Part shown: one piece after another, positions 2,452 through 19,344 of the stretch | Numbering within the stretch: the stretch's first letter is position 1 | Layout of the letters: every line of letters begins with the position of its first letter | Assembly: GCA_029252725.1 (NCBI GenBank) | Contig: JAQXAV010000052.1 | Span: forward strand, 23,081 to 87,080 | DNA: 64,000 bases | Reading direction: 5' to 3' | From: Amylibacter sp. | GTDB lineage: Bacteria; Pseudomonadota; Alphaproteobacteria; Rhodobacterales; Rhodobacteraceae | The notes under the pieces: model-generated | The model's input: only the letters and a program-made list of their open reading frames with translations | Database searches by the model: none | What the model was told of the DNA's origin: nothing | Position numbers and translations under genes: made by a program

Positions 2452-3156
2452 TCAGTGCCCAAAATACGCTGCAGCCAACCTTTCATCATTCGCCAGCTCT
2501 GACGGCGCACCCGAGGCAGCAATATGACCATTTTCCATAACGTAAACCTTTTCGGCAAGTGTCATCGCAAAATTTGCATTCTGCTCGGTCATGACAACCG
2601 TCAGACCGAATTCACCGCGCAAACGCCGCAGAACTTCGGCAATTTCTAAACAAACCTTCGGTGCGAGGCCAATAGTTGGCTCATCAACCAATAATAATCG
2701 TGGAGACGACATTAATGCACGGCCCAACGAAACCATCTGCCGCTCTCCACCTGATTGGGTCGAGGTTTCCTGATCTTCGCGCTCAGCCAATCGTGGGAAC
2801 AAAGTGTGAATCATACCCATATTATTTTCGATATCATCGCGGGCAGTATAGCTGCCAACCAAAAGGTTGTCGCGCACCGTCATGTATGGGAACAAATTAA
2901 ACCGCTCAGGAGCGTAGCCAATCCCACGTTTCACCACATCCGCTGTAGATTTTCCGACGAGCGACAAACCATCAAACCGCATATCCCCCGTCATTTTGGT
3001 TAATCCCATAATACTATCAAGTAAAGTCGATTTCCCCGCACCATTCGCACCGATCAATGCAATCGCACCGCCCTCTTCCACGTCAAATGATACGTTATGC
3101 AATGCTTGCGCTTTGCCGTAAAAAGCGGACAAGTTTTCAATCTCTAGAAATGCCAT
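2452..3156 (-). CDS. livF: Liv-type (HAAT) ABC transporter ATP-binding subunit
   Basis: Walker A GANGAGKST, signature SGGERQM, LLLVDEPTIGLAP. Confidence 0.85.
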   Translation of the reverse strand: MAFLEIENLSAFYGKAQALHNVSFDVEEGGAIALIGANGAGKSTLLDSIMGLTKMTGDMRFDGLSLVGKSTADVVKRGIGYAPERFNLFPYMTVRDNLLVGSYTARDDIENNMGMIHTLFPRLAEREDQETSTQSGGERQMVSLGRALMSSPRLLLVDEPTIGLAPKVCLEIAEVLRRLRGEFGLTVVMTEQNANFAMTLAEKVYVMENGHIAASGAPSELANDERLAAAYFGH

Positions 3157-3887
3157 TACGCTTCCCCCAGATAGGATGCACGTACCTCATCGCTGGTTAT
3201 GACGTCTGCGTACGAACCTTGCGAAATCATACTGCCATGGTTGATGGCAATGGCAGTATCCACCAGAGGTTCCAGCGCTTTCAGATCATGGCTAACGATC
3301 AGAAATGTCATCCCATCAGAACGCATCTTTTGCACCAAATCACTGATCATTGCGATTTCGGCTACAGTCAGGCCTGCGAAGACCTCATCAAGCAACAGCA
3401 CTTTCGGGTCTGTCGCCATAGTCCGCGCCATTTCTAGTTTGCGCAAATCGCCCATCGACAGCTCCGCTGGGGTGCGCTCAAGATCATCTTCGGAGAAGCC
3501 GACGGAAAGCGCTAGTTCTAGCTCGCGATCACGGTTTGGACTATTCAAGATCATACCGAGAACACTGTCAGGCATTAGCCCAACTCGAATATTCTCGGCC
3601 ACTGTCATGTCAGAAAATGGTCGAGGCACTTGATATGTACGACTTACTCCACGGCGAATACGTAAGGGCGTAGACAGATTTGTGATCTCCTCAGTCCCTA
3701 ACTTGATCGAGCCCGACGTTTGGCGATGCTCACCCATAACCTGACTAAAAACAGTTGTCTTTCCCGCTCCGTTTGGCCCAATCAGTCCAACGGATTGCCC
3801 TGCCTCAATCTCGAACGACAAATCATTCGTCGCAGTCAGGCCCCCAAATTTTTTCACCAGATTGGTGACGGTCAACGACATGCTCAT
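3156..3887 (-). CDS. livG: Liv-type ABC transporter ATP-binding subunit
   Basis: KKFGGLTATNDLSF, GPNGAGKTT, LLLDEVFAGL, VSHD. Confidence 0.85.
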   Translation of the reverse strand: MSMSLTVTNLVKKFGGLTATNDLSFEIEAGQSVGLIGPNGAGKTTVFSQVMGEHRQTSGSIKLGTEEITNLSTPLRIRRGVSRTYQVPRPFSDMTVAENIRVGLMPDSVLGMILNSPNRDRELELALSVGFSEDDLERTPAELSMGDLRKLEMARTMATDPKVLLLDEVFAGLTVAEIAMISDLVQKMRSDGMTFLIVSHDLKALEPLVDTAIAINHGSMISQGSYADVITSDEVRASYLGEA

Positions 3888-4825
3888 GACCGCGCCCTTA
3901 CTTTGATCCAGCTTTGATTGATAATCTCATAGATCCCTTTGGGTTGGTACATATACAATAGCAATGCCACCCCACCATAAATAAAATAACGCTCTGCACC
4001 TGGCAGGTAAGGCCGCAGATATTCCAGCAGAAAGGTCAGAAAAAAAGCGCCTATTATGGGCCCAATCGTCGTGGATGCCCCGCCAATCAAAGCGGCTACA
4101 ATAATCGTAAATACAAAGTTGATATCAAACAATGCACGCGGCGCTATGGACCCAAGGTAGTGTACATACATTGCGCCCCCGAGCCCCGCAATCATCGCAC
4201 TTAATAGAAAAGCAAACAGCTTGAGCCGTGTCACAGACAGCCCCGAGCCCTTCACCGCTTCTTCATTCATTCCAATGGCAGACAGCGCAGTGCCGATACG
4301 CGTGCGCATCACAAGCCAGACACTAAAAGCAACAATCACCATCAAAGTCAGCGACATGTAATACCCATTCACTGCCCCACGCGTCAGCGTTGGCAGACCC
4401 GACATCCCACGTGTGCCACCCGTAAGATCGGGCCTTACAACTTGGACGAGTTGATAGATTAATTCCATATATGCCAGCGTAATCAGCGCAAAATAACTGC
4501 CTTTGATGCGCAAAGCCGGTAAAACAACAATCAAACCACCAATCATGGTCACGCCCACCGCAATTGGAATGGAAAGTTCCAAAGGAAAATCGAAGCGCTT
4601 AGTTAATATGGCCGTGGTGTACGCACCAATCCCAATCAAAAATGGATGCCCAAAACTTACGTACCCTGTGCGCCCAGACAGTACATCCCAACTGATCGCA
4701 AACACCGCCAAAAAATTCGCAAAAATGATGATCCGCAGTGTACCTTTGGACACCAGTTCGGGGAGCAGAAACATGAACCCAACGAAGCCAGCCCAAGCCA
4801 CAAAATGATACCAACGCAATCCCAT
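3884..4825 (-). CDS. livM: Liv-type ABC transporter permease (LivM-like)
   Basis: SWDVLSGRTGYVSFGH, LRIKGSYFALITLA, GGTRGMSG motifs. Start moved to MGLRWYH (4825), just after the livH stop. Confidence 0.8.
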   Translation of the reverse strand: MGLRWYHFVAWAGFVGFMFLLPELVSKGTLRIIIFANFLAVFAISWDVLSGRTGYVSFGHPFLIGIGAYTTAILTKRFDFPLELSIPIAVGVTMIGGLIVVLPALRIKGSYFALITLAYMELIYQLVQVVRPDLTGGTRGMSGLPTLTRGAVNGYYMSLTLMVIVAFSVWLVMRTRIGTALSAIGMNEEAVKGSGLSVTRLKLFAFLLSAMIAGLGGAMYVHYLGSIAPRALFDINFVFTIIVAALIGGASTTIGPIIGAFFLTFLLEYLRPYLPGAERYFIYGGVALLLYMYQPKGIYEIINQSWIKVRARS

Positions 4826-4827
4826 GG

Positions 4828-5679
4828 CTAAAGTTCCTCTCGTCCAAAGAGGCCCTTGGGCCGTAAAATTAAAACCGCAATGATCAGCACCATGGTCATC
4901 ACTCCACGAAGCTCGGGCGCGATAAAGGCAGATGTCATTACCTCCATAAACCCAATAATATGTGCTACAATGAGCGTACCAATAATTGACCCGATACCAC
5001 CCACAATCACAACTGCAACAGCTATAATAAGTGGCGCAACCCACATGCCAGGATATAGCTGTGTGTAACTGGCAAAGAACACACCCGAGACCGCGCCAAG
5101 CATCCCTGAAATCCCCCACGTGATCATATTGATGCGATTTGCGTCAATCCCGGAAATAGCTGCACCTTTAGGGTCCATCGACACTGCTTGCATGGCTCGA
5201 CCCGTATGGGTTTTACGTACAAACAGATAGAGAGAAATGAGGATCACCCAACTTGCCACCGCCGCAAACAAATTCGAATATGGGATTGCTGCGCCACCAA
5301 TACGTTCAACTCCCGGAATGATCGGCAGCAAAATTTTGGAACTATCGCCAAATAATAAGACGATACCTGCTTGCAAAACAACGGCAAGGATCAGCGACGA
5401 AATTTCAACCGCCACATGGTCGCCCTTAAGCGGTTTCACAAGCAAACGATATTTTAACAAGCCCATTAGGCAACCAAGGATCGCGGCTAAAAGAACGCCT
5501 GCAATTTTGGGCATTCCAAGTGTTTGCGCAAAATAGAAATATGTGTACCCGCCGATCAGCAAATATGCGCCATAGGCAAGGTTAAGGATACGTCCAACAC
5601 TAAAAATCAGCGTGAACCCCATCGCAATCAATGCGTATAGCCCGCTCAGCAATAGTCCTTGGATCAGGATTTGCGCCAT
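4828..5679 (-). CDS. livH: Liv-type ABC transporter permease (LivH-like)
   Basis: GLLLSGLYALIAMGFTLIFSVGRILNLAYG, TGRAMQAVSMD, VIVGGIGSIIG. Start set at MAQILIQ. Confidence 0.85.
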   Translation of the reverse strand: MAQILIQGLLLSGLYALIAMGFTLIFSVGRILNLAYGAYLLIGGYTYFYFAQTLGMPKIAGVLLAAILGCLMGLLKYRLLVKPLKGDHVAVEISSLILAVVLQAGIVLLFGDSSKILLPIIPGVERIGGAAIPYSNLFAAVASWVILISLYLFVRKTHTGRAMQAVSMDPKGAAISGIDANRINMITWGISGMLGAVSGVFFASYTQLYPGMWVAPLIIAVAVVIVGGIGSIIGTLIVAHIIGFMEVMTSAFIAPELRGVMTMVLIIAVLILRPKGLFGREEL

Positions 5680-5708
5680 AAAATCATGCCTATAAGAGAA
5701 ATCATTGA

Positions 5709-5735
5709 GGACGGCGCGAAGTGTCCGCGCCATCC
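5709..5735 (-). terminator. GC-rich hairpin after the substrate-binding gene (terminator or mRNA stabiliser)
   Basis: Minus strand GGATGGCGCG-GACACTT-CGCGCCGTCC, 10-bp stem with one G.U pair, between SBP and permease genes. Confidence 0.55.
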
Positions 5736-5746
5736 ATCAGGAAGAA

Positions 5747-7036
5747 TTACTTCTTAACCCAGCTAGGGAGGGAAAATGTCGTTGTTGCAAATTCAGGCGG
5801 ATAGACCACCCCAACACTGCCATCTTCTTTCCATTGCACAACAACCATGGACGGCGCCGCATCTTCATAAGGTGCGGTTAAGTCAAACAGAGCATTATGC
5901 GGATAAGTGCGGCCCGTGACCGGTTCAACGGTATCTTTGTCCCAAAAACCGTAGCGTAGGACCAATTTACCATCTTTTTCCAGCGTAAGGTCCTGCTTCT
6001 CCATTGCTTCAGACCATTTTTTTACATCGCCAAAACCACCAGCTTCTTCAGCTGCTGCCATGGCTTGTTTCATGCCATAATAAGCATTGAAACCATTGAA
6101 GTGCGGCATCATTGGCCGCGACTTATATTTAGTTTGGTAGGCCTTAACAAAAGCTTCAGACGTTGGATCCAGCGCGTAACCAACAGACGGAACAGGAGAC
6201 AACGTAGAAATTCCCCCGCCTTGTCCACCGGTATCTTCCCAGTACTCCATCCCAAGCGCTGATACATTCACACCTGTCATTCCCATTGGCACTTGCAGCT
6301 TCACATACTGCGATGAAATCACCTGAGAGTTCACAGAAGACACCTGATAAATGAAGTCTGCACCAGACGCTTCTGCCTTAGAAAACAGCGGTGCAAAGTC
6401 ATTTGTGTTGATGTCATAAGTGATGATTTCTTTCACCTCAATCCCTGCCACAGGGCCAAGCGCCTCTGTTACCAGACCCGTAATTGCACCACCAAAAGCT
6501 GTGTCTTCAGCCAAAATAACAACGCTTTCCCAACCCATTTCTTTCTTGAGAACATCCGCACCAAAATTGATGTAGAGCGTTGCTAAAGCTTCATCTGACG
6601 CGATGTTCATGAAATACGGCGCCATGGTTTCTGGGTCTTCAACCACCATATCAATGATGCCGATGTAAGACGTCCATGTATCAAGTGTCGGAATTTGGAA
6701 TTCCTGCATTCGAGGTAACCAGCCCAAGGATACATCGTCGATGGAACCTGAAATGATAAAATCCACCTCTTCGGTTTCGGCGAGATATTCATAGGCTTTC
6801 ACGCCTTCAGTCACGTCTTCGCCAGTATCAGCACTGACCAAAACAATCTTTTCGCCCATTACACCACCGTTGGCGTTTAACTCTTCAATTGCAATCTCTG
6901 CGCCGCGAAGCGTGGATAAGCCTGTATCAGACGACAAAGATCCAATAAATCCCACTTTGATATCTGCGAAAGTAGCTGAACCAAGTAGCAGCGCACTCAG
7001 TGTTACCGTTGAAAACACAGTTTTCTTTAATTGCAT
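5747..7036 (-). CDS. Liv-type ABC transporter periplasmic substrate-binding protein, ligand unknown
   Basis: Signal peptide (MQLKKTVFSTVTLSALLLGSATFA), IKVGFIGSLS..GAEIAIEELNANGGVMG, first gene of the permease/ATPase operon. Confidence 0.85.
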   Translation of the reverse strand: MQLKKTVFSTVTLSALLLGSATFADIKVGFIGSLSSDTGLSTLRGAEIAIEELNANGGVMGEKIVLVSADTGEDVTEGVKAYEYLAETEEVDFIISGSIDDVSLGWLPRMQEFQIPTLDTWTSYIGIIDMVVEDPETMAPYFMNIASDEALATLYINFGADVLKKEMGWESVVILAEDTAFGGAITGLVTEALGPVAGIEVKEIITYDINTNDFAPLFSKAEASGADFIYQVSSVNSQVISSQYVKLQVPMGMTGVNVSALGMEYWEDTGGQGGGISTLSPVPSVGYALDPTSEAFVKAYQTKYKSRPMMPHFNGFNAYYGMKQAMAAAEEAGGFGDVKKWSEAMEKQDLTLEKDGKLVLRYGFWDKDTVEPVTGRTYPHNALFDLTAPYEDAAPSMVVVQWKEDGSVGVVYPPEFATTTFSLPSWVKK

Positions 7037-7082
7037 AAAAATCTCCCTTGTTCTGATGAGACGGAAAATCTCCCAACTCCGT

Positions 7083-7098
7083 CGTATACAGTATACAG
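7083..7098. promoter_or_regulatory. Putative GntR/FadR-type operator upstream of the ABC transporter operon
   Basis: CGTATACAGTATACAG, tandem GTATAC units also seen at 14097 and 19328. Confidence 0.6.
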
Positions 7099-7363
7099 TG
7101 CACATAGTCAGATTCATTGCAACACTGGATTTTAAGGACTTTCAGCGGCTGAAGTTTCTAACACTCAGTATTTCGACATCTTGTTTTAGCACGCATACAA
7201 CCAATGATTTCTGCGAAAGGCATATTAAAATAAAAATATTTTCCTTCGATGGCAGTTGCAAATTTACACAAGCCATAAGCAAAAAAGTTATTTTCCATCC
7301 GTTTGAATCATTAAAACTTCAACATTAGTAACAAATAGGATACCAAAGAGAACCAATAAAAAT

Positions 7364-7771
7364 TTAATAGTGAATATTGCCTTCTTCGTCGTGTATAATC
7401 GCATCCACATCGATTTCTACCATCATACCAGGCTGAGTTAGTCCTGCCTCAACACCCGTCATCACAGGATCAATGCCCTTAAATACCTCCCCATGGGCTT
7501 TCACCAAACCCCCTGCAGCCGACATATCTGTGATATATGCCCTAGTCCGCACGACGTGGCGCATCTCTGCCCCCACTTCGCGCAATGCTCCTTCAATGCG
7601 GTCAAGGATGTAAACGCTTTGCGCGTAACAGTCGTTAGGTGCATGCAGTTTACCACTCGGCTCAATCGCTGTAGTCCCAGCGATATAAACAAATGGCCCG
7701 ACGCGTTTCGCACGAGAATAGCTACCGATCTCTTCAAATCGTCCACCCGAATTCCACCTACGAAGTGTCAT
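7364..7771 (-). CDS. Rid (YjgF) family protein, last gene of the BMC operon
   Basis: GYS-like GSYSRAKRVGPFVYIAGTTA, VVRTRAYITD, MMVEIDVDA. ATGA overlap with the mdh-like gene. Confidence 0.85.
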   Translation of the reverse strand: MTLRRWNSGGRFEEIGSYSRAKRVGPFVYIAGTTAIEPSGKLHAPNDCYAQSVYILDRIEGALREVGAEMRHVVRTRAYITDMSAAGGLVKAHGEVFKGIDPVMTGVEAGLTQPGMMVEIDVDAIIHDEEGNIHY

Positions 7772-8946
7772 AGGCCAAGCCGCGTGCGAATAGCCTCGGC
7801 CGCGCTGTGCAAAGCGTTGGTTTCATCAGGTGTAAGTCGTATTTCCTCTACGCTTACCAACCCTGTAGCACCCAGATGCGCAGGCACACCTAGCACCACG
7901 CCAGACATACCATATTCACCTTGGAGCATCACTGAAACAGGCACGGGGCCCACCTTTGCGCCGCGAATGTGATCCATTAATTCAACCGAAGAATGCGCGG
8001 GAGCTATCGTGGCTGAACCTGACTTCTTAATCGCAACAACCTGTCCACCCCCCGTGATCGCGTCCTGTACGCAACCCGAAATTTGTTCATCGGATAAAAA
8101 CCGCTCCAACCGCCGTCCTTTAATGCGCGCCAATGACGTAATTGGAGCCATTTCATCCCCGTGACTGCCTAATGTGATCGCAGACACATCATCAGGCGTT
8201 ACACCGGCCGCCATTGCCAACGCATTGCGGAAACGCGAACTGTCAAGCGTCCCTGCCATCCCAAGAACCCGTTCGCGCGGGAACCCTGTAGCCCGAAGCA
8301 TTTCAACCGTCATCTCATCAAGCGGATTGGTAACAACAATCACTATTGCATCGGGCGCAGAAGTTTTAATAGCCTCTCCAGCTGAGTGAATAACCCGTGT
8401 GTTTACATCAATCAGATCAGCCCGCGTCATACCGGGACTTCGGGCACGACCTGCAGTCACGACAACTAGATCAGCCCCTGCAACCAACGTCAAATCTTCG
8501 CCGCCCACACACCGCGCCTTTACACCCGTAATACCACTAGCGTGGTTGAGGTCGAGCGCTAAAGCCTCTGCCATTCCGGGTGCTATATCAATCAGTGAGA
8601 TCTCTTCCGCCATATCCGCAATGGCTGCTAGATGCGCGATATTACCACCAACACCGCCAGCACCAACCAGCGCAATCTTAGAAAACCGCCGAGCGGTACG
8701 TTTGACAATAGCCCTCGGCGCAACCCATTTTGGCGAACGCCGAAAGAGCCCCCGCCGCATTGCTGTTCGACCATCCGTCCTTACCACTGCTGGTTTTTCG
8801 AGCGGCCCTTCGACCAGCTTGATTCCCAATCTCGCAGCTGTTTCACGCGCTAAGTCTGTAACAATATCGCTCGGCAAAACTTCAAAGACAATGCGGCTGT
8901 GTTTTCGCGCATCCTCAATATGTTCTGACCCTACGATGCGTGACAT
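7768..8946 (-). CDS. Malate dehydrogenase (LDH-like MDH) with about 88-aa N-terminal extension
   Basis: KIALVGAGGVG Rossmann motif, TAGRARSPGMTR (Arg at the MDH specificity position), VTNPLD, LDSSRFR, GSHGD catalytic motifs intact. Confidence 0.85.
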   Translation of the reverse strand: MSRIVGSEHIEDARKHSRIVFEVLPSDIVTDLARETAARLGIKLVEGPLEKPAVVRTDGRTAMRRGLFRRSPKWVAPRAIVKRTARRFSKIALVGAGGVGGNIAHLAAIADMAEEISLIDIAPGMAEALALDLNHASGITGVKARCVGGEDLTLVAGADLVVVTAGRARSPGMTRADLIDVNTRVIHSAGEAIKTSAPDAIVIVVTNPLDEMTVEMLRATGFPRERVLGMAGTLDSSRFRNALAMAAGVTPDDVSAITLGSHGDEMAPITSLARIKGRRLERFLSDEQISGCVQDAITGGGQVVAIKKSGSATIAPAHSSVELMDHIRGAKVGPVPVSVMLQGEYGMSGVVLGVPAHLGATGLVSVEEIRLTPDETNALHSAAEAIRTRLGL

Positions 8947-9569
8947 TATTCTGTCCGTCCATCCACTGATTCAATCGCTTTAGTCGCCGCCTGAACAGCA
9001 GTTTGAACAGAGTCTTCCGACCCAGAAATAAATAATCGGCCAAACCGACCAACCGCACGAACTTCGACCATATCGATTTCGGCAGACTTCTCAGCCTCAT
9101 TTGCCGCAATTGAAATATAAGCCGCGGGAGCACATTCGATAATCCCCAGGGTTTGTCCTGGAACCAAAAGCGAACCCTTGCGCCACTTGTTCAATAGCTG
9201 CGCCTGATACGGCTCTACGCTTGTGATAATTTGCGTGTTTGTGATTGCTGGCTTCAACCGATCCGCCATTGTTGCACCCAGTTCTGAGAGCATTGCATCC
9301 CGAGCTGCAGTCACCTCAGCGTTACTCGGCGAGCGCAGAATAAAAAAGCCAAACTCCCGCTCCACCATTTGTGTCGTCGCCTCGACCGAGGAAGCCTTCA
9401 AAGCACGGTCGATCAGCGAAAAAACTCCGTTGCCTGGCGCAAATTCACCAATTAGCACAGTATCACCCGACAAAGGCACGGAACCCTGAACAGTAGCACC
9501 GTTATATGCGGCGAATTTTGGCTGTAAATTGTCGATCTGCATTAGCGCGCGAATTGTAATGTCACTCAT
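8946..9569 (-). CDS. BMC shell protein, tandem permuted BMC-T (CcmP/CsoS1D-like, BMC-Tdp type)
   Basis: 207 aa; IDNLQPKFAAY..G, E.APG, ALKASSV, VEREFG in domain 1; G..LGIIECAPAAY...AANEAEKSAEI..VEVRAVGRFGRLFISG in domain 2. Confidence 0.85.
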   Translation of the reverse strand: MSDITIRALMQIDNLQPKFAAYNGATVQGSVPLSGDTVLIGEFAPGNGVFSLIDRALKASSVEATTQMVEREFGFFILRSPSNAEVTAARDAMLSELGATMADRLKPAITNTQIITSVEPYQAQLLNKWRKGSLLVPGQTLGIIECAPAAYISIAANEAEKSAEIDMVEVRAVGRFGRLFISGSEDSVQTAVQAATKAIESVDGRTE

Positions 9570-10945
9570 TCGCCATACTCCTCATAGATATCGCGCCAAG
9601 GGCGGTTTTCATAGGCCACACGCTTGATATTGATCAGGTGCAGTGCTGTAACGTTGTCCGATGTGATACTGCCAGACCATGTGCCAGTGCCAAGCATAAA
9701 GGACGGTTCCAAATCAGTTGAATAACCCATGCCACCCAAAATCGCTGGTGTATTCACAAGGACGCGGCCCGTGGGCACCGCCGCAAACTGAGCCACGATT
9801 TCTGGATCGTTTGAGTGCAAGCAGGCTGAGTGGCCCCAGCCCTCAAACTTTGCAATATTAATCGACATCTCAATGCCATGCTGGCTGTCACGCACCTCAT
9901 AGAAGGCTAAAACAGGATTCAACTTTTCTGCACTAAGCGGACGATGCCAACCAATTTCGGTCTCCTCAGACACCAAACAACGCGTTTTGGGCGGAATCGA
10001 AAACCCAGCAGCGTCCGCTAATGCTTGTGGGCTTTGCCCAACACGCTCTGCATTCATCGCTTGCTTACCCATAAAGATTACTTTGGATAAACGGTCACTT
10101 TCCGCAAGGGTGCAGAAATACGCTCCACGCATCTTCATTTCTTGGCGCAACTCACGCGCAATCTCGGGATCGGCTATTACCGCTTGTTCCGAAACACAGG
10201 CAGTACCGTAGTCAAAACACTTGGAGGTTACGATCATCTCAGCAACTTCGCCGATCTCACCACCCTTCGATTTATGAACATAACAGGGTACGTTGCCTGC
10301 ACCAACAGCCAACGTCGGCTTACCACTTGAATAGGCCGCCTTTACCATCGCAGGGCCACCCGTCGCCATAACAACTGATGTGCGGCGGTGACTCATCAAT
10401 TCGGCCGTGCCTGCAATGGTCACTTGGTCTAAACACTGAATCAAACCCTTCGGCGCACCCATTTGTTCAGCTGCGTCCGCCATCACCTTGATTGTCGCCA
10501 TCCCACACTTAATGCCACGCGGATGTGGCGCACAAACAATTGCATTGCCTGCCTTCACTGCCGACAGTACCTTAAAAATAATCGTCGAAGTCGGGTTCGT
10601 AACTGGTATTAATGCTGCCACAACGCCCATAGGCTCGCCAAACGCCGCAACCTTCGTCGCATCATCACGCCACAACATTCCAAGCGTCGTCACATCACGT
10701 AGAAAATCCGCAACCGAAAGCGCGTTAAACAAATTCTTAAGCCGCTTATCAGGCACGTTCCCGTATCCTGTTTCTTCAACGGCCAGTGCGGCCAGCTCTT
10801 TGGCAACAGGTTCAATTGCCCGTGCCATCGAATCGACAATTGCATCTACATGCGCAGGGTCCGTGCCAAGAAATTTTTGATACGCCGTAAAAGCCGTTTC
10901 CGCGGTTCGCCGTGCAGCTGCAATGGATTTAAGATCATCGTCCAT
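9566..10945 (-). CDS. CoA-acylating aldehyde dehydrogenase (EutE/PduP family)
   Basis: PMGVVAALIPVTNPTST, ATGGPAMVKAAYSSGKP, catalytic SKCFDYGTACVSEQ, EKLNPVL, GHSACLHS, GTGTWSGSITSDN. Confidence 0.9.
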   Translation of the reverse strand: MDDDLKSIAAARRTAETAFTAYQKFLGTDPAHVDAIVDSMARAIEPVAKELAALAVEETGYGNVPDKRLKNLFNALSVADFLRDVTTLGMLWRDDATKVAAFGEPMGVVAALIPVTNPTSTIIFKVLSAVKAGNAIVCAPHPRGIKCGMATIKVMADAAEQMGAPKGLIQCLDQVTIAGTAELMSHRRTSVVMATGGPAMVKAAYSSGKPTLAVGAGNVPCYVHKSKGGEIGEVAEMIVTSKCFDYGTACVSEQAVIADPEIARELRQEMKMRGAYFCTLAESDRLSKVIFMGKQAMNAERVGQSPQALADAAGFSIPPKTRCLVSEETEIGWHRPLSAEKLNPVLAFYEVRDSQHGIEMSINIAKFEGWGHSACLHSNDPEIVAQFAAVPTGRVLVNTPAILGGMGYSTDLEPSFMLGTGTWSGSITSDNVTALHLINIKRVAYENRPWRDIYEEYGE

Positions 10946-10946
10946 A

Positions 10947-12134
10947 TCAACTTCCTCCCTTGGCTATTGCGTCCATGGCGGATCGCGCCGTGTCTATATC
11001 TTTGGCGGTAATCCCAATAGTATCAAGCCGCCGTCCCGCTGCCGCAACATCTGCACCCAAAATGGCACTCGCCAGCGTAATCATCGATTGCGTCACAGGC
11101 AGTTCAATCCCTGCCAGCTTTCCAGCTGACATAAGCGGCACGAGCGAGCCAATAACTCCATCACGCAACAATGCCTTAGCACCATCTTGATCCGGCACAG
11201 GCCTTTTAGCCTCTCCCTTTACAACACCGGCATGGGTTTCAATCAAAGTTTTCACACCCGCCAATCCACGGACACCAAAGGCTTTCGCAACAGACATCCG
11301 TTCTTTTGTCAATTGTTCGATTATATTGCGCTGTTCGATACCAATCAGAGCAGCAAAGTTCTGATTCTCCGCCAAAGGCGCCCCGCCCATGGGCACAGGC
11401 ACTGCGCCTGAACCCAGTGCCGGACCACTCATCAACAACGCGGGAAACTCTACCAGAGCAGATCCATCTGCGAAGCCAGATGTTAGGACACTGTCACAAG
11501 CTTCTAAATTTGGAAGGTATTTGGCCAAACCTTCCAAAACATCATCCCGACCACTTGGTAGAGTTGCGGCAGCTACAGGTCCGCACGGAGATAAGTTTAA
11601 AACCGCACCCTCTGCCTTAACAAAAAACGGCAAACCTTGCGCTTCGACAATCGTTATATCTGCAGTACAGCCACCAATACGTAAAAACCAAGCAGTTTCA
11701 AGTGCGCCCAACGATCGACCAGGGGCCAAAACCAAAACCTGCCCATCAGACAGATGATCAGCCAATACCATCGCGTAGGTGCGTTGCTTGTGTACAGGCC
11801 CCGTCAGGTAAATCACGTCTGCTTCTCTAACGGACGCATCTAGTTCCGCCGTTGTTTGGATGGACGGCGACGTACGATCTACCTGATAAGTGCCAACTGG
11901 CCCAGCGCCGCGCAGAGAGACACCGCTCGACGAGCGCAATGCCTCCAGTTCGGACCCATAGGCTGAAAAGAGTGAGACTTTCGCCCCTTCAGCCAGGCTC
12001 AGCGCCGCAATAAGCCTCGCATCTTCACCGCCACCCAGCACTGAGATACGGTCATAGGACGGCACGTTTCTTGACTTTTTGGACGCAGACGAGCTTGAAG
12101 CCGCATCCGCGAATTCTGCAAACGCATTGGTCAT
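10947..12134 (-). CDS. NAD/NADP octopine/nopaline (opine) dehydrogenase family homologue with degenerate motifs
   Basis: Family-like layout (ISVLGGG, A.V..ADVIYLTGP, GQVLVLAPG, GSLVPLMSAGKLAGIELPVTQSMITLASAILG.D....GRRLDTIG), but GGGEDA replaces GxGxxG and the expected NxxxHP and RYxxED motifs are missing. Confidence 0.75.
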   Translation of the reverse strand: MTNAFAEFADAASSSSASKKSRNVPSYDRISVLGGGEDARLIAALSLAEGAKVSLFSAYGSELEALRSSSGVSLRGAGPVGTYQVDRTSPSIQTTAELDASVREADVIYLTGPVHKQRTYAMVLADHLSDGQVLVLAPGRSLGALETAWFLRIGGCTADITIVEAQGLPFFVKAEGAVLNLSPCGPVAAATLPSGRDDVLEGLAKYLPNLEACDSVLTSGFADGSALVEFPALLMSGPALGSGAVPVPMGGAPLAENQNFAALIGIEQRNIIEQLTKERMSVAKAFGVRGLAGVKTLIETHAGVVKGEAKRPVPDQDGAKALLRDGVIGSLVPLMSAGKLAGIELPVTQSMITLASAILGADVAAAGRRLDTIGITAKDIDTARSAMDAIAKGGS

Positions 12135-12163: not shown

Positions 12164-12460
12164 CTAACCAGCAATGCCTTCAAGAATGGCTTCCAGTTCA
12201 TCATGTGGGCGTGCGATCACATGGACAGACACCACTTCACCAACCTTGTTAGCTGCTGTCGCACCCGCGTCTGTTGCCGCCTTTACCGCGCCGACTTCGC
12301 CACGAACGAGCGTTGTTACCAACCCACCGCCCGCTTTTGTTTGTGCAACAATCGCAACGCTTGCTGCTTTGACCATCGCATCAGCCGCTTCAATAGAAGC
12401 GACCAAGCCACGTGTTTCGATCATACCTAGAGCCGATTGGCCCGCTGCTGGTTTCGCCAT
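12164..12460 (-). CDS. BMC shell hexamer protein (BMC-H, EutM/PduA-like)
   Basis: [60 protein letters not shown]. Confidence 0.95.
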
Positions 12461-12484: not shown

Positions 12485-12754
12485 TTATTTTGCGAGGGCG
12501 ACTTTATCCACCACCGCGACAATTGTTGCATCTACGGGCGAACCCGCGCTTCCAGCCGCCATACGAGCCGCTGATCCTGTAGTAATAAGCACGGTGTCTC
12601 CAACGCCTGCACCCACCGTATCCGTGGCTACTTGTGCCTCTGATAAAACGCCACCAACGCCATCGGTGATGTCACACAGAAGCAAGGTCGCCCCAACTAG
12701 CTGTGTATCTTTGGCGGTGGCCGTGACCGTCCCAACAACGCGAGCTAGTTTCAT
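12485..12754 (-). CDS. BMC shell pentamer/vertex protein (BMC-P, EutN/CcmL family)
   Basis: MKLARVVGTVTATAKDTQLVG, VATDTVGAGVGDTVLITTGSAAR, PVDATIVAVVD. Confidence 0.95.
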   Translation of the reverse strand: MKLARVVGTVTATAKDTQLVGATLLLCDITDGVGGVLSEAQVATDTVGAGVGDTVLITTGSAARMAAGSAGSPVDATIVAVVDKVALAK

Positions 12755-14061
12755 CAGAAGTTCCCCAGATAACGGTCAAGTTCGATCTGTGTAACTTGGT
12801 TGTTGATAAACTCATTATAAAAATTCAATTCCCGCTCGCACATTTGCAAATAGATTTCCCACTGTGTTTCTCCCATAACGTCCTTGAGCCACGCAGACCC
12901 GCGGGCAAGATCAATTGCAGTGCCTAAATCCGTTGGGATCGGAGCTGCACGTTGAGATTCATAAGCATTGCCCAGCTCACATTCATCGGGCTCTATACTC
13001 TGCTCAATACCATCCAAACCCGCTGCAATATCAGCAGCCAGTAACAAATATGGATTAGCATCTGCACCCGCGTCACGCTTTTCGATCCGTGTGGCTGTGT
13101 TAGACCCTTGAATCACGCGCAAACCGACAGTGCGGTTGTCCAATCCCCAAGCTGTGTTGATCGGACAAAACGTGTAAGGCTGACGGCGACGGTACCCGTT
13201 CACTGTAGCAGAACCACAAACAGACGCTTCCGCCATCCGCTTTTGCAAACCACCCAAAAAATGTCGGCCCATCTCACTCAACTCACCCTTATTTGCGAAG
13301 ACGTTCTTACCGTTTTCCCAAACTGAATAATGCGTATGGAACCCATTGCCACTCTCCTCAAAGAATGGCTTTGCCATAAAGGTCGCCTTGTAATCGTGCG
13401 CAGATGCCAGCTGCTTTACCAAAGTGCGGAATTCAACCGCACGATCTGCAGACAACATTGCTTCGCCGTAACGTATATTCACCTCAACCTGGCCGGCCGC
13501 ATACTCCGGATTAGACTGCTCGATTGGGATACCGTACTCATTAATTTGTTGGCGGATCGGACCAAGCACATGCTCTAACTCCGCTGAACGATCAAGACCA
13601 TAAACACCGATCCCCCGGTCTTTTGGCAAATTTGTTTCGGGGTCAAGCAGATAGAATTCGAGTTCCGTACCAACTTGTACCTGAAAGCCCATCTTTTCCG
13701 CACGCGTCAACTGTCGTTTCAAAACGTTGCGCGGATCAATCGGTAATTCGCTGTGATCCATTGCTTCAGAACGCCCCATGCACATCGCCACACCCGGCTC
13801 CCAAGGCAACTCTACAGGTTGTGTCATCGGAAACATGTGAAAATCAGGGTAGCCATTGTCAAAGTTCACATAGGGTGTGTCCCAGACATCGCATGTCATA
13901 TCGATCGCGAACAAAGCGATAGAATAAGCATTTCCGTTCTTACAAATATTGTCCCAATGAGTTGCAGGGATGCGCTTTCCACGCATTATTCCACACATAT
14001 CTCCTAAACCCATTACAACAGTATGCGTTCCCTCTGGTAATTTAAAGCTTTGATTAGACAC
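12754..14061 (-). CDS. Glutamine synthetase family gamma-glutamylamide ligase (PuuA/PauA-like), first gene of the BMC operon
   Basis: D..GIMRGKRIP, ELEFYLL, EYAAGQVEVNI, SGNGFHTHYSVW, WGLDNRTVGLR, RIEKRDAGADANPY. The GS glutamate-flap 'EAP' is replaced by 'FCP'. GTG start with GGGAG upstream; TGATG overlap with the BMC-P gene. Confidence 0.85.
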   Translation of the reverse strand: MSNQSFKLPEGTHTVVMGLGDMCGIMRGKRIPATHWDNICKNGNAYSIALFAIDMTCDVWDTPYVNFDNGYPDFHMFPMTQPVELPWEPGVAMCMGRSEAMDHSELPIDPRNVLKRQLTRAEKMGFQVQVGTELEFYLLDPETNLPKDRGIGVYGLDRSAELEHVLGPIRQQINEYGIPIEQSNPEYAAGQVEVNIRYGEAMLSADRAVEFRTLVKQLASAHDYKATFMAKPFFEESGNGFHTHYSVWENGKNVFANKGELSEMGRHFLGGLQKRMAEASVCGSATVNGYRRRQPYTFCPINTAWGLDNRTVGLRVIQGSNTATRIEKRDAGADANPYLLLAADIAAGLDGIEQSIEPDECELGNAYESQRAAPIPTDLGTAIDLARGSAWLKDVMGETQWEIYLQMCERELNFYNEFINNQVTQIELDRYLGNF

Positions 14062-14147: not shown

Positions 14148-15290
14148 ATGTCGAAAGCTAACATTATAATAGTCGGTGGGGGAATAGCTGGCGCCATGAC
14201 CGCGCTAAACCTCCAACGCAATGGCGAGCGTGTGACTCTCATCGATCGATGGGAGCCCGGTCATCCCCGTGCTGCCTCGACCGACTATAACCGCGTTATC
14301 CGCGCCATCTCCGGTCGTGATGAATTCTACACTAGATGGGCACGCGAAAGCCGCACGCGCTGGCTGGAACTTCAAACTGAGACTGGCCAGAAACTAATGT
14401 ATGAATGTGGCGCTCTTATCCTCGCCACTAGGGGCCACTGTGACTGGGAAGACGCCACCGCTACCACCTTCGACCGTGTTGGTGTCCCCTACTACAAACT
14501 CAGCAAAGAGGAAGTGCAACAACGTTTTCCACAATTCAAAGTGGACGAAATCGAATACGCCTTGTTTGAACCTGAAGCCGGCCTCCTCATGGCGCACCGC
14601 TGTGTAATCACCGCCATTGACCTATTCAAGAAACTTGGCGGCACGGTCAAACGCGAAATCGTCACAACAGACGCAACCGAACGCCCAATGGTTAACGGAA
14701 AGCCGCTAGAGGCAGACGTGATAATCGTTGCTACAGGCGCTTGGATGGCAGAAATGTTTCCAAAAACAATCAAACCAATCAGTGCAATAATGGGAATAAA
14801 CGTGCTTTACACTTCTACCCCTGACGGATCCGATGCGTTCGACATGGATAACATGCCTTGCTGGATCGATCATGGCCAAGGTTCATTCGGCATCCCAAGT
14901 TCGGAGGGATCAGGCGTCAAAGCCGCCGTTGTTATTCCAAACACACCTATCGATATTAACAACGACGAACGTTTGATCGAAAAACAATCGCTCAACAAAA
15001 CCCGCCAATATATACGTCACCGACTCCCGGGCCTTGAAGGACAACGCATTGTGGACAGTAAATTTAATCAAGTCATCTTAACGCCCGACACACATTTTAT
15101 CGTCGACTGGCATCCCAAACATAAAAACGTCCTGCTCGCTGGCGGTTGTTCGGGACACCTGTTCAAACACGGCCCAATCTTTGGCGAATTTACTGCTGGG
15201 GTTGCCATGAAAAACTATGGCACAGCCGACCGTTTCAAAATCGCGGGCCGCCGCAAACTCTCTCCTAAGGAGAGCCCAAGTGGACGTTAA
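14148..15290 (+). CDS. FAD-dependent amine oxidase, monomeric sarcosine oxidase / N-methyl-amino-acid oxidase family
   Basis: IIIVGGGIAG FAD motif, AASTDYNRVIR, TPDTHFIVDWHP, GCSGHLFK. Confidence 0.8.
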   Translation: MSKANIIIVGGGIAGAMTALNLQRNGERVTLIDRWEPGHPRAASTDYNRVIRAISGRDEFYTRWARESRTRWLELQTETGQKLMYECGALILATRGHCDWEDATATTFDRVGVPYYKLSKEEVQQRFPQFKVDEIEYALFEPEAGLLMAHRCVITAIDLFKKLGGTVKREIVTTDATERPMVNGKPLEADVIIVATGAWMAEMFPKTIKPISAIMGINVLYTSTPDGSDAFDMDNMPCWIDHGQGSFGIPSSEGSGVKAAVVIPNTPIDINNDERLIEKQSLNKTRQYIRHRLPGLEGQRIVDSKFNQVILTPDTHFIVDWHPKHKNVLLAGGCSGHLFKHGPIFGEFTAGVAMKNYGTADRFKIAGRRKLSPKESPSGR

Positions 15291-15563
15291 GACTTAGTGC
15301 TGGCAACCAATAAAAACCTCAGCCTTCGGACAGATAAAGATAAACAAACCTCTGAACATAATTGCTTGAGGCCACCCATGCCATTGCCAAAAAGTAAATA
15401 TCTCTGCTTCAGCCCCACTCAAAGACCGCTTCAATTTGGAGAATAACAGCTAGCTTTCGATCGGTTTAGGCACTTTTGCTTAGGTCTGACAAACGAGCTT
15501 AGGGATGCGTCAGGCTAGGATGTGACATCTTTTTGAATACCGACGACACGGATCAAAATAAAA

Positions 15564-16271
15564 TTATAGATTAGCCGCGTGCACGCGAAAGAATTTGGCT
15601 ACTTTTTCAGTCATTAAATCAGCTTTCACGTCTCCTGCGTCAAAGCTGGCCAGGGCGGCTGCCATTTCCGCATCGTTCGGAAAACCTGACTGGCCTTGCG
15701 CACGCGCAAACACATCCGAAATGTGCTTCTTCGTATGTTCGGGATGAAATTGGACACTGGCAGCTGGAAAGTCATATTCTAACGCACCCACTGGACAGTA
15801 ATCCGCTATCCCCGTGACCTTAGCATTTGGGGGCACTTGGGTGACCTGATCCTGGTGCCACACATGCGCGTCCACCTCAATACCATTGAGATCAAATTGA
15901 CGCACGCCAACAACGTTGCCACCCAAAGTCTTTTCAGCCTTACCTCCAAACGTATCTGCCATGATCTGATGCCCAAAACAAATTCCGAAGATCGGCTTAC
16001 CCACCACTTTGGTGTTCCGTAACAATTGGCGCAGCGGCTCCATCCACGGCGTATCATCGTAAACACCAAACTCTGACCCAGTCAGCAACAGTCCATCAAA
16101 CGTATCCAGTCGCGGCATGGGCGCGCCACCCTCCGCCACATCAATCCGCGCAAATTCCGCATCAGACATCGCAGGTGCGATCCACTCGACAGTTTGCTCC
16201 CCAACGCTGGGTAATCCCTCCAACATTGGAACTGGATGTCGTGTCAGATCGAGAACGGCAATTCTCACCAC
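15564..16271 (-). CDS. Class I glutamine amidotransferase (possible gamma-glutamyl hydrolase)
   Basis: LTGS, nucleophile elbow GICFGHQ, WHQDQV, QFHPE catalytic His-Glu. Confidence 0.85.
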   Translation of the reverse strand: MVRIAVLDLTRHPVPMLEGLPSVGEQTVEWIAPAMSDAEFARIDVAEGGAPMPRLDTFDGLLLTGSEFGVYDDTPWMEPLRQLLRNTKVVGKPIFGICFGHQIMADTFGGKAEKTLGGNVVGVRQFDLNGIEVDAHVWHQDQVTQVPPNAKVTGIADYCPVGALEYDFPAASVQFHPEHTKKHISDVFARAQGQSGFPNDAEMAAALASFDAGDVKADLMTEKVAKFFRVHAANL

Positions 16272-17689
16272 TCATAGGCCCTATCAATTCCAGCCATCTT
16301 CACCCCCGTAAAAGCAGAAGCTTCAAAAGACAATGCACGCAGATCTTCAACCTCTAAGTTATGTACCGATGATTTACCACATGCCTTAGCCAATGCCGTG
16401 ATTTCCATCGTCATCGCTGTCAGATACCGCGCCACACGTTCGGCACCCGCGTGGGGGTCCATGCGCTTCTCCAACTCTGGATCTTGCGTTGCCACGCCAA
16501 CTGGACACATCCCTGTATGACAGTGGTGACAAGCCCCTGGAGATGTGCCAAGCTTCGCGTAATCTTCTAAATAACGGGGCGAATTACAGCCCATTGCGAT
16601 CATCGCCGCATTTCCAATCATTACCGCATCTGCGCCCAAGGCGATCGCCTTGGCCGCATCGACACCTGATCGAATACCGCCCGCCGCAACAAGCGACACC
16701 TTATCCGACATCCCACATTCATCCAGACTTTCTCGCGCTGCACGAATGGCCGACATATTCGGAATACCTGTATGGTTAAGCAGAAGTTCAGGCGACGCAC
16801 CAGTGCCGCCTTCCGCCCCATCTACCACGATAATATCAGCACCAGCCTTTGCCGCAACCGCCACATCGAACCGTGGACGCGTTGCACCCATCTTTATGGA
16901 AATTGGCACCTTATAGTTGGTCGCAATCCGCAGCTCTTCAATTTTTACAGCCAGATCATCGGCACCAAGGAAGTCTGGGTGTCGAATTGTCGACCGCTGA
17001 TCCACGCCTTCAGGCAAAGTGCGCATCTTTGATACGCGCGGGGACACTTTCATCCCAAGCAGCAAGCCACCCGTTCCAGGCTTTGCGCCCTGCCCTACAA
17101 CAATCTCGAGCCCATCCGCGCGACGCAGATGTTCCAGATCAATTCCATATCGGGCGGGTGACATTTGATAAACAAGCCTCTGCGAAGCCTCCCGCTCCTC
17201 TTCGAGCATCCCACCTTCACCCGTGCAGGTCATTGTTCCAACTTTGGATGCACCGTAACCTAACGAAGCTTTTGCAGATGCAGACAATGCACCAAAAGAC
17301 ATCGACGCGATATAGATTGGAATTTTTAGTTCGAGCGGATTTTCAACAATCCCACGTCCACCACCTAAAATGGTTGTTGTATCACACTTCTCGCGGTAGC
17401 CTTCTAACGGTAACCGCGTCATCGTTGCGGGCACAAACGTCAGGTCATCGAAAGTTGGCATCCGTTTATTAAAGGAATTATAGCCACGCACCTGATAACG
17501 CCCCAGCTGAGCTAATGCATGCACTTCCGAAATCGCTTCGGGTGTCCAGCGAGCTGAACCACCTTCGTCATAAGATGCGGGAACACCTGCTGGACGACCT
17601 TCTACAGCACCCGCATCTTTAAATCGAATTTCATCCTCGGGCGGCAGCTCGAATGGATAATCATATGGTTTGCTTAGATCATGAGCCAT
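16265..17689 (-). CDS. FMN-binding glutamate synthase domain protein (N-methylglutamate synthase subunit C, MgsC/GlxD-like)
   Basis: MSFGALS, TGEGG, GQGAKPGTGG, DGAEGGTGA, GGIRSG.D, Fe-S motif CHHCHTGMCPVGVATQD. Confidence 0.85.
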   Translation of the reverse strand: MAHDLSKPYDYPFELPPEDEIRFKDAGAVEGRPAGVPASYDEGGSARWTPEAISEVHALAQLGRYQVRGYNSFNKRMPTFDDLTFVPATMTRLPLEGYREKCDTTTILGGGRGIVENPLELKIPIYIASMSFGALSASAKASLGYGASKVGTMTCTGEGGMLEEEREASQRLVYQMSPARYGIDLEHLRRADGLEIVVGQGAKPGTGGLLLGMKVSPRVSKMRTLPEGVDQRSTIRHPDFLGADDLAVKIEELRIATNYKVPISIKMGATRPRFDVAVAAKAGADIIVVDGAEGGTGASPELLLNHTGIPNMSAIRAARESLDECGMSDKVSLVAAGGIRSGVDAAKAIALGADAVMIGNAAMIAMGCNSPRYLEDYAKLGTSPGACHHCHTGMCPVGVATQDPELEKRMDPHAGAERVARYLTAMTMEITALAKACGKSSVHNLEVEDLRALSFEASAFTGVKMAGIDRAYEW

Positions 17690-19307: not shown

Positions 19308-19327
19308 AAACAGACCCTCCACTTTCA

Positions 19328-19344
19328 TTGTATACTGTATACAG
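19328..19344. promoter_or_regulatory. Putative GntR/FadR-type operator between mgsA-like and gntR genes
   Basis: TTGTATACTGTATACAG; a further CTGTATACG copy lies at 19418-19426. Confidence 0.65.

Follow-up and report, generated by a model that had tools for sequence, protein, structure and literature searches.

The locus raised the question of what a malate dehydrogenase (MDH) with an 88-residue N-terminal arm does in a BMC operon whose genes include no alcohol dehydrogenase. It lies in the window (the whole stretch of 64,000 nucleotides of Amylibacter sp. DNA that was analysed) and is another member of the MIC2 type of Sutter et al. [quoted passage not shown] The whole genome had two PF00936 matches, both at this locus, and no other BMC locus. 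The best explanation, which we hold with roughly even confidence, is that the extended protein is a dedicated MDH of the MIC2 metabolosome, composed of an EutQ-like arm fastening it to the shell and an oxaloacetate-reducing core recycling NAD+.

Neither the gene type nor its extension is new, both having been catalogued in 2021. The extension of the MIC2 protein and its similarity to EutQ were noted by Sutter et al. (2021, Nat Commun, Supplementary Data 2; PMC8217296), who gave it about 70 aa, suggested a role in ligand binding, and described a similar N-terminal domain in the MIC1 homologue. Nothing essential differed between their LDH/MDH-family protein and ours, in which the extension has 88 aa and three distinct parts: module, basic block and linker. 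The idea of an NAD+ recycler also extends a published one, since an LDH/MDH-family protein was proposed as the substitute for the core alcohol dehydrogenase in PVM and discussed as such for MIC1 (Axen et al. 2014; PMC4207490). The PVM/MIC1 proteins and the MIC2 enzyme belong to the same family and have the same proposed role, that of the only other NAD-dependent enzyme that could regenerate NAD+ for the aldehyde dehydrogenase. The MIC2 enzyme retains Arg102, the residue specifying oxaloacetate. NAD+ regeneration in MIC2 was still listed as undetermined in 2024 (PMC11626177), and no experimental work on MIC2 or on any roseobacter BMC turned up in the literature searched.

Table 1. Genes of the MIC2 locus and parts of the extended MDH (positions in the window).
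Feature	Position	Strand	Basis
RidA-family protein	7364..7771	-	Pfam Ribonuc_L-PSP; start overlaps MDH stop
Extended malate dehydrogenase gene	7768..8946	-	392 aa + stop; ORF, Pfam Ldh_1_N + Ldh_1_C, NCBIfam NF004863
LDH-like (tetramer-type) NAD-dependent MDH core, residues 89-392	7771..8682	-	Foldseek, phmmer, catalytic residues
Variable basic linker, residues 78-88, probably flexible	8683..8715	-	Low conservation, pLDDT ~54
Conserved basic block RTDGxTAxRRxLYRRSPKWVAP, residues 57-77	8716..8778	-	Conservation, predicted helix 59-70
EutQ-N-terminus / eut_hyp / PduM-type module, residues 1-48	8803..8946	-	hhalign, profile search, EutQ model, AlphaFold2, dN/dS
BMC-T, CcmP/CsoS1D-like tandem-domain trimer	8946..9569	-	Pfam BMC; NCBIfam CcmP model match below cut-off
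CoA-acylating aldehyde dehydrogenase, without terminal extension	9566..10945	-	TIGR02518 + Pfam Aldedh
Opine-dehydrogenase / 6PGDH-like protein	10947..12134	-	Pfam Octopine_DH
BMC-H shell hexamer gene	12164..12460	-	Pfam BMC, 87.7 bits
BMC-P shell pentamer gene	12485..12754	-	Pfam EutN_CcmL, 89.1 bits
Glutamine-synthetase-like ligase, first gene of the operon	12754..14061	-	Pfam Gln-synt_C, 302 bits

The gene is on the minus strand, which the first-pass annotation had not mentioned, and the extension is an integral part of it. The translation began with MSRIVGSEHIEDARKHSRIVFEVLPSDIVTDLARETAARLGIKLVEG, as quoted in the first-pass annotation, and the ATG overlapped the TAA stop of the BMC-T gene (junction TAATG), while the MDH stop overlapped the RidA start (junction ATGA). 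Had orthologues started at about residue 89, the arm proposed at the first pass would have been in doubt; none did among the 85 related loci, and all the full-length orthologues recovered from them carried the extension. The possibility that translation starts internally near residue 89 was dismissed in view of conservation, dN/dS and start-stop coupling. The BMC-T gene was directly upstream of the MDH gene in 84 of the 85 loci, with full synteny, and the same gene order was seen in loci L010-L012 and about 70 further loci. In the host's family, the module was found in 8 of 201 genomes, adjoined by BMC genes in all 8; its occurrence was hence restricted to BMC contexts (8/8 genomes, 84/85 loci). 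The wider genome collection was scanned with an alignment of closer extensions, one of diverse extensions being too variable for this purpose.

The catalytic core does begin at about residue 89, as had been proposed: Pfam placed Ldh_1_N at residues 90-229 and Ldh_1_C at residues 233-387, and the NCBIfam model NF004863 (“malate dehydrogenase”) matched residues 89-388 with 311.6 bits, above its cut-off of 283. The score against the stricter equivalog TIGR01763 was below the cut-off (260.7 vs. 351.85 bits), and the MDH thus represents a divergent subfamily. The motifs ARSPGMTR, LDSSRFR and GSHGD, from which the catalytic residues had been read, were all found in the core, and the correspondence with LDH numbering was R169 = R102, R175 = R109, N207 = N140, D235 = D168, R238 = R171 and H262 = H195. 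These catalytic and specificity residues were invariant in 58 close homologues and kept in 83 of 85 related genes (80 of them from species-level genomes). The Rossmann motif GxGxxG was GAGGVG (residues 95-100), and the acidic residue selecting NAD over NADP was the invariant D120. Foldseek of the full model matched MDH and LDH cores only, with a TM of 0.93 and rmsd of 1.6-1.9 A for Chloroflexus, Methylobacterium and other MDH structures, and phmmer gave E values of about 1e-67 against the MDHs of the PDB.

A housekeeping MDH of 320 aa, 38% identical to the enzyme of the BMC locus, was encoded separately in the same genome (contig 55). The fold (TM 0.93), the catalytic residues and the NAD specificity were common to the BMC-locus enzyme and the housekeeping LDH-like MDHs (Chloroflexus 4CL3, Methylobacterium 4ROS and the copy of the same genome), but the former differed in its 88-aa arm, in a 5-residue deletion near residue 283 and in being confined to BMC operons. 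These data support the prediction that the enzyme is a catalytically competent MDH of the NAD type, separate from the housekeeping enzyme.

The first-pass annotation had proposed that the MDH possibly replaces the encapsulated alcohol dehydrogenase, of which none was seen. This was true of the locus, where neither a phosphotransacylase nor an alcohol dehydrogenase (Fe-ADH or Zn-ADH) nor a PduS-type enzyme was encoded; Fe-ADH genes were present in the genome on other contigs only, and PduL was absent from it. The MDH itself fell outside the core alcohol dehydrogenases of metabolosomes, since it belongs to another family than Fe-ADH and Zn-ADH and its Arg102 points to oxaloacetate; it is at most their functional analogue, as a sink for NADH. 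The aldehyde dehydrogenase that would supply this NADH matched TIGR02518 over residues 2-454 (498.6 bits, under the cut-off of 620.1 bits). Besides it, the sole other NAD-fold protein of the locus, the opine-dehydrogenase-like protein, lacks the opine-dehydrogenase catalytic His (His202 of CENDH, 1BG6, aligned to Glu). By this pathway logic, NAD+ recycling and a malate/oxaloacetate shuttle are plausible: in this proteobacterial lineage the core would most likely re-oxidise the NADH produced by the acylating aldehyde dehydrogenase, converting imported oxaloacetate into malate, whose reducing power would then pass to the housekeeping MDH of the cytosol and to respiration. Because cells contain little free oxaloacetate, the shuttle would have to import it efficiently. 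If the MDH is the recycler, it would carry redox equivalents across a protein shell, an arrangement that suits aerobes able to respire the reducing power sent out.

The tight coupling with RidA is a hint at another source of the 2-oxo acid, namely the pathway itself. Oxaloacetate, or a near analogue, would be formed there, for example when RidA helps to hydrolyse an imino acid released by amine oxidation, and the MDH would convert it to malate as a carbon product. The overlap between the MDH stop and the RidA start, and the presence of RidA after the MDH in 82 of 85 loci, agree with such a role, as do the enzymes of the surrounding regulon, which include gamma-glutamylation, N-alkylglutamate-synthase-like and MSOX-like amine-oxidising enzymes that yield imines. 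However, no enzyme of the locus obviously makes iminosuccinate, and an NADH sink for the aldehyde dehydrogenase, the core logic of metabolosomes, is simpler, so that we consider a pathway enzyme improbable. The glutamine-synthetase-like ligase, with below-cut-off matches to type III glutamine synthetase and gamma-glutamylputrescine synthetase, is probably a gamma-glutamyl-amine synthetase.

The N-terminal module had been likened at the first pass to one fused to several BMC-locus proteins, a likeness borne out by profile methods. These were needed because Pfam gave no match for residues 1-90 alone, even at E = 10, and NCBIfam only a weak one to EutQ (E = 0.026). BLASTP of the extension against E. 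coli EutQ was also weak (24 residues, E = 0.004), and a word-indexed search with residues 1-88 returned MDH fusions only. With hhalign, residues 3-47 of the MDH aligned to residues 3-48 of E. coli EutQ (E = 0.0012), a match of modest significance over about 45 residues to a single EutQ sequence. A search of 1.84 billion proteins with the extension profile retrieved, besides MDH fusions, EutQ-cupin proteins (E = 2e-4 and 5e-4) and proteins with tandem modules, which in turn matched TIGR02536, the EutQ N-terminus and the PduM C-terminus; the NCBIfam EutQ model matched 14 of 16 diverse extensions, with a best E value of 1.7e-5. The homology of residues 3-47 accordingly extends to the N-terminus of EutQ, the “eut_hyp” repeats of TIGR02536 and the C-terminus of PduM. 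Of the two comparisons suggested in the first-pass annotation, HHpred and Foldseek, profile comparison matched EutQ, whereas Foldseek of the isolated N-terminal model against the PDB gave no significant structural relative (best E = 0.28). Reciprocal profile evidence supports the assignment of the N-terminal piece as a BMC-associated module.

This homology bears on function through the work on EutQ. In Salmonella, EutQ contacts the shell through H1/H2 (residues 9-41), at the interface of EutL and EutM (BMC-T and BMC-H), and a second region, H3/H4, binds the encapsulation peptides of cargo; EutQ is encapsulated, its dimer linking shell and cargo on the inside (PMC12487888). GFP is directed to the Eut compartment when fused to no more of EutQ than residues 1-99 (Yang et al. 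2025, Sci Adv; PMC12487888). The MDH arm and EutQ H1/H2 have in common about 45 homologous residues, two predicted helices, an N-terminal place, a flexible segment thereafter and an oligomeric enzyme as partner, which is tetrameric in the MDH but a dimeric cupin acetate kinase in EutQ. By homology of residues 1-48 with the shell-binding H1/H2, the arm most likely ties the tetrameric MDH to the shell.

It is very improbable that the extension binds a ligand or has a regulatory function and does not serve in targeting or tethering. The suggestion made by Sutter et al. (PMC8217296) would suit a module predicted with confidence as a compact alpha/beta fold and not as a simple amphipathic helix. 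Nevertheless, the part of EutQ homologous to it is the N-terminus outside the cupin, which binds the shell (PMC12487888), and the same module of about 45 residues (IT..D....G...L.L....IVTP.ARD.A...GI) recurs, single or in tandem, in “eut_hyp” and PduM proteins which, unlike the MDH, have no enzyme domain.

The three parts of the arm differed in structure and conservation. For the module, AlphaFold2 predicted strands at residues 4-5, 20-23, 27-28 and 43-46 and helices at 7-15 and 31-40 (pLDDT 80-92), and for the block and the linker the pLDDT was about 57 and 54, respectively. With respect to the closest relative, dN/dS was 0.05 for residues 2-48, 0.10 for 57-77, 0.11 for 78-88 and 0.07 for the core; more distant comparisons, where computable, gave mostly about 0.4-1.4 for the linker, dS being saturated in most pairwise comparisons and dN/dS usable from the closest few alone. 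The linker was thus the fast-evolving part. The dN/dS of the arm was similar to that of the core, and the extension is under purifying selection.

The basic segment reported at the first pass corresponded to the block at residues 57-77, in which R65, L67 (Met in two) and R70 were kept across all lineages, including the catalytically dead clade described below. The similarity to EutQ ended at about residue 48-58, and sequence comparison detected no similarity between residues 57-77 and H3/H4: where EutQ has its cargo-binding helices, the MDH has an unrelated, strongly basic block, which could do an analogous job though not homologous. An encapsulation peptide is an amphipathic helix of about 15-20 residues joined to its enzyme via a poorly conserved linker; helix 59-70 followed by the variable linker resembles this layout, with a helix that is short, very basic and predicted at low confidence. 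The opine-dehydrogenase-like protein carried at its N-terminus a short acidic helix resembling an encapsulation peptide (NAFAEFADAA) and a Ser-rich linker, with the FxEFAEA motif and a variable linker conserved in 69 homologues.

Taken as a working model, the arm would attach the tetramer to the shell from within, and the basic helix (residues 57-77) may hold other cargo: either the aldehyde dehydrogenase, in which an encapsulation peptide is lacking, or the opine-dehydrogenase-like protein by way of its acidic peptide. With four arms, the tetramer would be a multivalent shell-cargo linker, as is the EutQ dimer. Shell binding by the MDH arm is a prediction from homology, and the face of the shell that the module would bind cannot be told from sequence alone. 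Docking on the outer (cytosolic) face, where the enzyme would feed or drain metabolites at the pores, would profit from the CcmP/CsoS1D-type BMC-T encoded just upstream. This class has gated pores that could pass cofactors. Against it, the homologous EutQ is encapsulated and links cargo inside, and a dedicated paralogue on the outer face would be unnecessary because a housekeeping MDH exists; we consider such docking quite improbable. If the arm is a shell-cargo linker, a compact targeting module of about 48 residues would be common to Eut, Pdu and MIC compartments and could be of use in engineering.

The new result of this work is a monophyletic actinobacterial clade that has the arm and lacks the catalytic residues. 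Seventeen actinobacterial cluster representatives formed one clade (100/100 support) which lost R102, R109, N140, D168 and mostly H195, but retained the extension, T30, A33, R65, L67, R70 and the NAD-specifying Asp, as well as GxGxxG in 16 of the 17. Their genes sit in MIC2-like loci. Since the arm outlasted the active site, a compartment of this BMC type can work with no MDH activity, and catalysis by the MDH cannot be among its necessary design principles; this weakens recycling as the reason for the presence of the protein. The family-wide role is therefore probably architectural, that of a shell-cargo linker, and the pattern of retained residues suggests that the structural role of the arm is the conserved one. 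The clade is a natural experiment separating the roles of recycler and scaffold.

Carried to its end, this argument would make the protein mainly a scaffold: a tetrameric hub between shell and cargo, possibly holding NAD(H), whose MDH activity would be an ancestral leftover with little part in the chemistry. The dead clade speaks for it, as does EutQ, in which assembly requires the N-terminus but not the enzymatic C-terminus (PMC12487888). In the window's lineage, however, the invariance of the catalytic residues (83 loci, 58 homologues) and the core dN/dS of about 0.07 place catalysis under strong selection, and we regard a mere scaffold as rather unlikely. A synthesis of both roles is offered tentatively. 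The extended MDH would be the organising linker of MIC2, with four arms like EutQ H1/H2 seizing the BMC-T/BMC-H interface and four basic helices gathering cargo devoid of such peptides for encapsulation; the proteobacterial form would in addition drive a malate/oxaloacetate shuttle exporting NADH equivalents without loss of carbon to alcohol, and in Actinobacteria it would be a pseudo-dehydrogenase serving as scaffold only.

Two further observations concern the actinobacterial loci. RidA was absent from those with a dead MDH, which fits the role of a pathway enzyme or its alternative. A complementary arrangement, in which a dead MDH is paired with a live opine dehydrogenase and vice versa, was considered and rejected: His202 was replaced by Glu in the window's protein and by Leu in the actinobacterial one, which was also devoid of GxGxxG. 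MIC2 compartments were present in at least 132 species-level genomes, mostly of marine Rhodobacteraceae, Rhizobiales and Granulosicoccaceae, and Ruegeria sp. ANG-R, a MIC2 genome listed by Sutter et al., had a homologue whose extension was 66% identical to that of the window.

The extended MDH of the window was made up of two clear halves: an N-terminal extension, or arm (residues 1-88), and a dehydrogenase (residues 89-392). Pfam placed Ldh_1_N at 90-229 and Ldh_1_C at 233-387, and residues 89-392 exceeded the cut-off of the NCBIfam model NF004863 "malate dehydrogenase" (but fell under the own cut-off of a stricter NCBIfam equivalog MDH model), in agreement with the first-pass annotation, which had the catalytic core beginning at about residue 89. 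The core grouped with tetramer-type LDH-like MDHs (PDB sequence search E ~1e-67; fold search TM 0.93, rmsd 1.6-1.9 A). Arg102, Arg109, Asn140, Asp168, Arg171 and His195 (LDH numbering) and the NAD-selecting Asp were all present, including the Arg, Asp/Arg and His already recognized in that annotation, and the chemistry-defining residues did not vary among 58 close homologues, nor in 83 of the 85 related loci. A second, housekeeping MDH (320 aa, 38% identity) was encoded on another contig of the same genome.

The extension is real and tripartite: every full-length orthologue recovered carried it, and none began near residue 89. With respect to the closest relative, dN/dS values were 0.05 (module), 0.10 (basic block), 0.07 (core) and 0.11 (linker); in more distant comparisons, where computable, linker values were mostly ~0.4-1.4. 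The MDH ATG overlapped the stop codon of BMC-T, the gene upstream, and the RidA start overlapped the MDH stop; these overlaps suggest translational coupling and a fixed stoichiometry between the BMC-T trimer shell protein and MDH.

Features of the extended MDH, its operon and related loci (window coordinates unless a locus is named)
Feature	Position	Description
Extended MDH	7768-8946, minus strand	ORF of 392 codons
Module	residues 1-48	Predicted small alpha/beta unit, helices 7-15 and 31-40, good confidence (pLDDT 80-92)
Basic block	residues 57-77	RTDGxTAxRRxLYRRSPKWVAP; conserved, strongly basic; helix predicted at low confidence
Linker	residues 78-88	Variable
BMC-T/MDH overlap	8946	TAATG
MDH/RidA overlap	7768-7771	ATGA
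Opine-DH-like protein	10947-12134, minus strand	Glu at CENDH (1BG6) His202
Conserved gene set around the BMC operon	14148-19385 and 2452-7117	MSOX-like flavoprotein, MgsABC-like trio (GATase, GXGXG, GltS-FMN), class I amidotransferase, GntR/FCD regulator, Liv-type ABC importer
BCCT-family transporter, Geminicoccaceae MIC2 locus	L012:1703-3304	Between MgsABC-like genes and flavoprotein gene
Dead extended MDHs	L013:10001-11188, L014:7658-8845	Proteins P0213, P0234-P0251
Actinobacterial opine-DH-like protein	L013:6788-7981	Leu at CENDH His202; IGADPVG instead of GxGxxG
MDH-less BMC locus L095 (G077:C1:1083000-1102000)	~5256-11349	APH-family kinase, class III aminotransferase, 524-aa aldehyde dehydrogenase, BMC-T, BMC-H

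The module had no Pfam match, and no similar solved structure was found. NCBIfam weakly matched the extension to EutQ positions 1-59, and a 35-sequence profile aligned residues 3-47 to residues 3-48 of E. coli EutQ (hhalign E = 0.0012). In a search of 1.84 billion representative proteins that used no word index, the same profile matched 55 proteins, the majority MDH fusions or fragments of them. Among the others were two EutQ-cupin proteins, aligned via their N-termini, and, carrying the module in duplicate, three small proteins that matched TIGR02536 "eut_hyp", the EutQ N-terminus and the PduM C-terminus; the remaining non-MDH matches were weak (E >= 3e-5: an ABC substrate-binding protein, an ankyrin/TIR protein and two without a Pfam family). 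In the reverse test, the EutQ model matched 14 of 16 diverse extensions. Judged by these profiles, which matched in both directions, the module is a BMC module, and the motif given in the first-pass annotation ("IT..D...IVTP.ARD.A...GI") was thus correctly recognized.

In Salmonella EutQ, residues 1-99 are enough to direct GFP to the compartment; the shell-binding part is H1/H2 (residues 9-41), which attaches at the EutL/EutM interface, cargo encapsulation peptides are bound by H3/H4 (residues 62-99), and the cupin domain is not needed for assembly (Yang et al. 2025, PMC12487888). Of these parts, the MDH arm shows homology to H1/H2 alone. The arm might instead be a ligand-binding domain, but since its homology is to the shell-binding part of EutQ, a shell tether is favoured; such a tether is also consistent with the MDH and BMC-T genes being coupled almost universally. 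The window aldehyde dehydrogenase had no terminal extension, and the opine-DH-like protein carried a short acidic helix (FxEFAEA) and a linker, conserved in 69 homologues. Speculatively, the basic block of MDH could hold either of these proteins or both.

The extended MDH was gene 7 of an eight-gene minus-strand operon (GS-like ligase, BMC-P, BMC-H, opine-DH/6PGDH-like, acylating aldehyde dehydrogenase, BMC-T, extended MDH, RidA), followed by the Liv-type importer and preceded by the divergent flavoprotein, the MgsABC-like trio, the amidotransferase and the GntR regulator; distant members had identical gene order. BMC-T lay -4 to 78 nt upstream of MDH in 84 of 85 related loci, the single exception being a contig that ended 40 nt before the MDH gene. 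In a sample of 201 family genomes (about one per genus), the module was found in eight, adjoined by BMC genes in all eight, and seven others had BMC genes but no module (hypergeometric p ~1e-10, by our own arithmetic from these counts). Of 185,579 species genomes scanned, 132 had the module, belonging to Rhodobacteraceae, Rhizobiales, Geminicoccaceae and the gammaproteobacterial Granulosicoccaceae and Halioglobus.

We give roughly even chances to a composite role as linker and enzyme, in which the arm would tether a probably encapsulated MDH to the shell, MDH would reduce oxaloacetate and so re-oxidize the NADH of the aldehyde dehydrogenase (its most likely use in this bacterium), and malate would leave the compartment. 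Binding of this particular shell is suggested by homology to the shell-binding region, and NAD+ recycling by an intact MDH next to an aldehyde dehydrogenase. Alternatively, MDH might be docked on the outer shell face, or be a pathway enzyme supplied through RidA. Of the earlier proposal of a BMC-type MDH replacing the alcohol dehydrogenase, the observation of a BMC module was confirmed and the interpretation was supported in part.

A clade of actinobacterial homologues cuts across the recycler idea. P0213, a representative from the profile search, lacked the catalytic residues and was encoded in a MIC2-like locus (BMC-H, opine-DH-like, aldehyde dehydrogenase, BMC-T, MDH-like, GntR and DAO, with a divergent GS-like ligase upstream). 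A homologue search gave ~19 cluster representatives with such changes, from Leucobacter, Nocardioides and Nocardioidaceae: R109 was lost, D168 replaced by A, N140 mostly by W, H195 mostly by D/E and R102 usually by G/C/S (retained in two). The NAD-specifying Asp was kept in all and GxGxxG in nearly all, as were arm residues T30, A33, R65, L67 and R70 in members with an intact N-terminus. The 17 members on the tree formed one clade (100/100 support), which branched on a long stem from within the active extended MDHs; they look like pseudo-dehydrogenases. An arm-bearing protein is thus kept where dehydrogenase activity is impossible; what is constant across the family is the arm, not the chemistry. 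This would suit a role as scaffold only, but in the window's lineage the chemistry is clearly under selection. The opine-DH-like partner does not obviously compensate for the dead MDH, because the CENDH catalytic His is absent in both lineages; this partner could be another pseudo-enzyme or have a different chemistry. Four metagenomic proteins with apparently long or short architectures (P0192, P0200, P0205 and P0233) were rejected as frameshifted gene calls, being normal to about residue 230-280 and then running into Arg/Pro-rich nonsense or a fused LuxR domain.

The window locus is of the MIC2 type of Sutter et al. 2021 (PMC8217296), whose Supplementary Data 2 gives an identical set of enzymes and shell proteins and already records the N-terminal extension and its likeness to EutQ; Ruegeria sp. 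ANG-R is among their MIC2 genomes. Axen et al. 2014 (PMC4207490) had proposed that core NAD+ regeneration in PVM loci falls to an LDH/MDH-family protein and had weighed this for MIC1 too, and a 2024 PNAS paper (PMC11626177) counts MIC2 among the types for which NAD+ regeneration "has yet to be determined"; our literature search found no experimental work on MIC2. The extended MDH is a further member of a catalogued kind, and the functional hypothesis builds on a published one. The additions made here are modest: the mapping of the arm to the experimentally defined EutQ H1/H2 region, its three-part anatomy with a selection profile, and the clade with a dead catalytic site.

The conserved gene set around the operon points to primary amine catabolism via gamma-glutamyl and N-alkylglutamate intermediates, with release of an aldehyde, and the transporter inserted in the Geminicoccaceae locus may hint at a quaternary or small polar amine substrate. 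The seven family genomes with BMC genes but no module carried a different BMC locus, without MDH; the one examined (L095) resembles the RMM/AAUM amino-alcohol type and was adjoined by an MttB-family methyltransferase and an OpuAC-type transporter.
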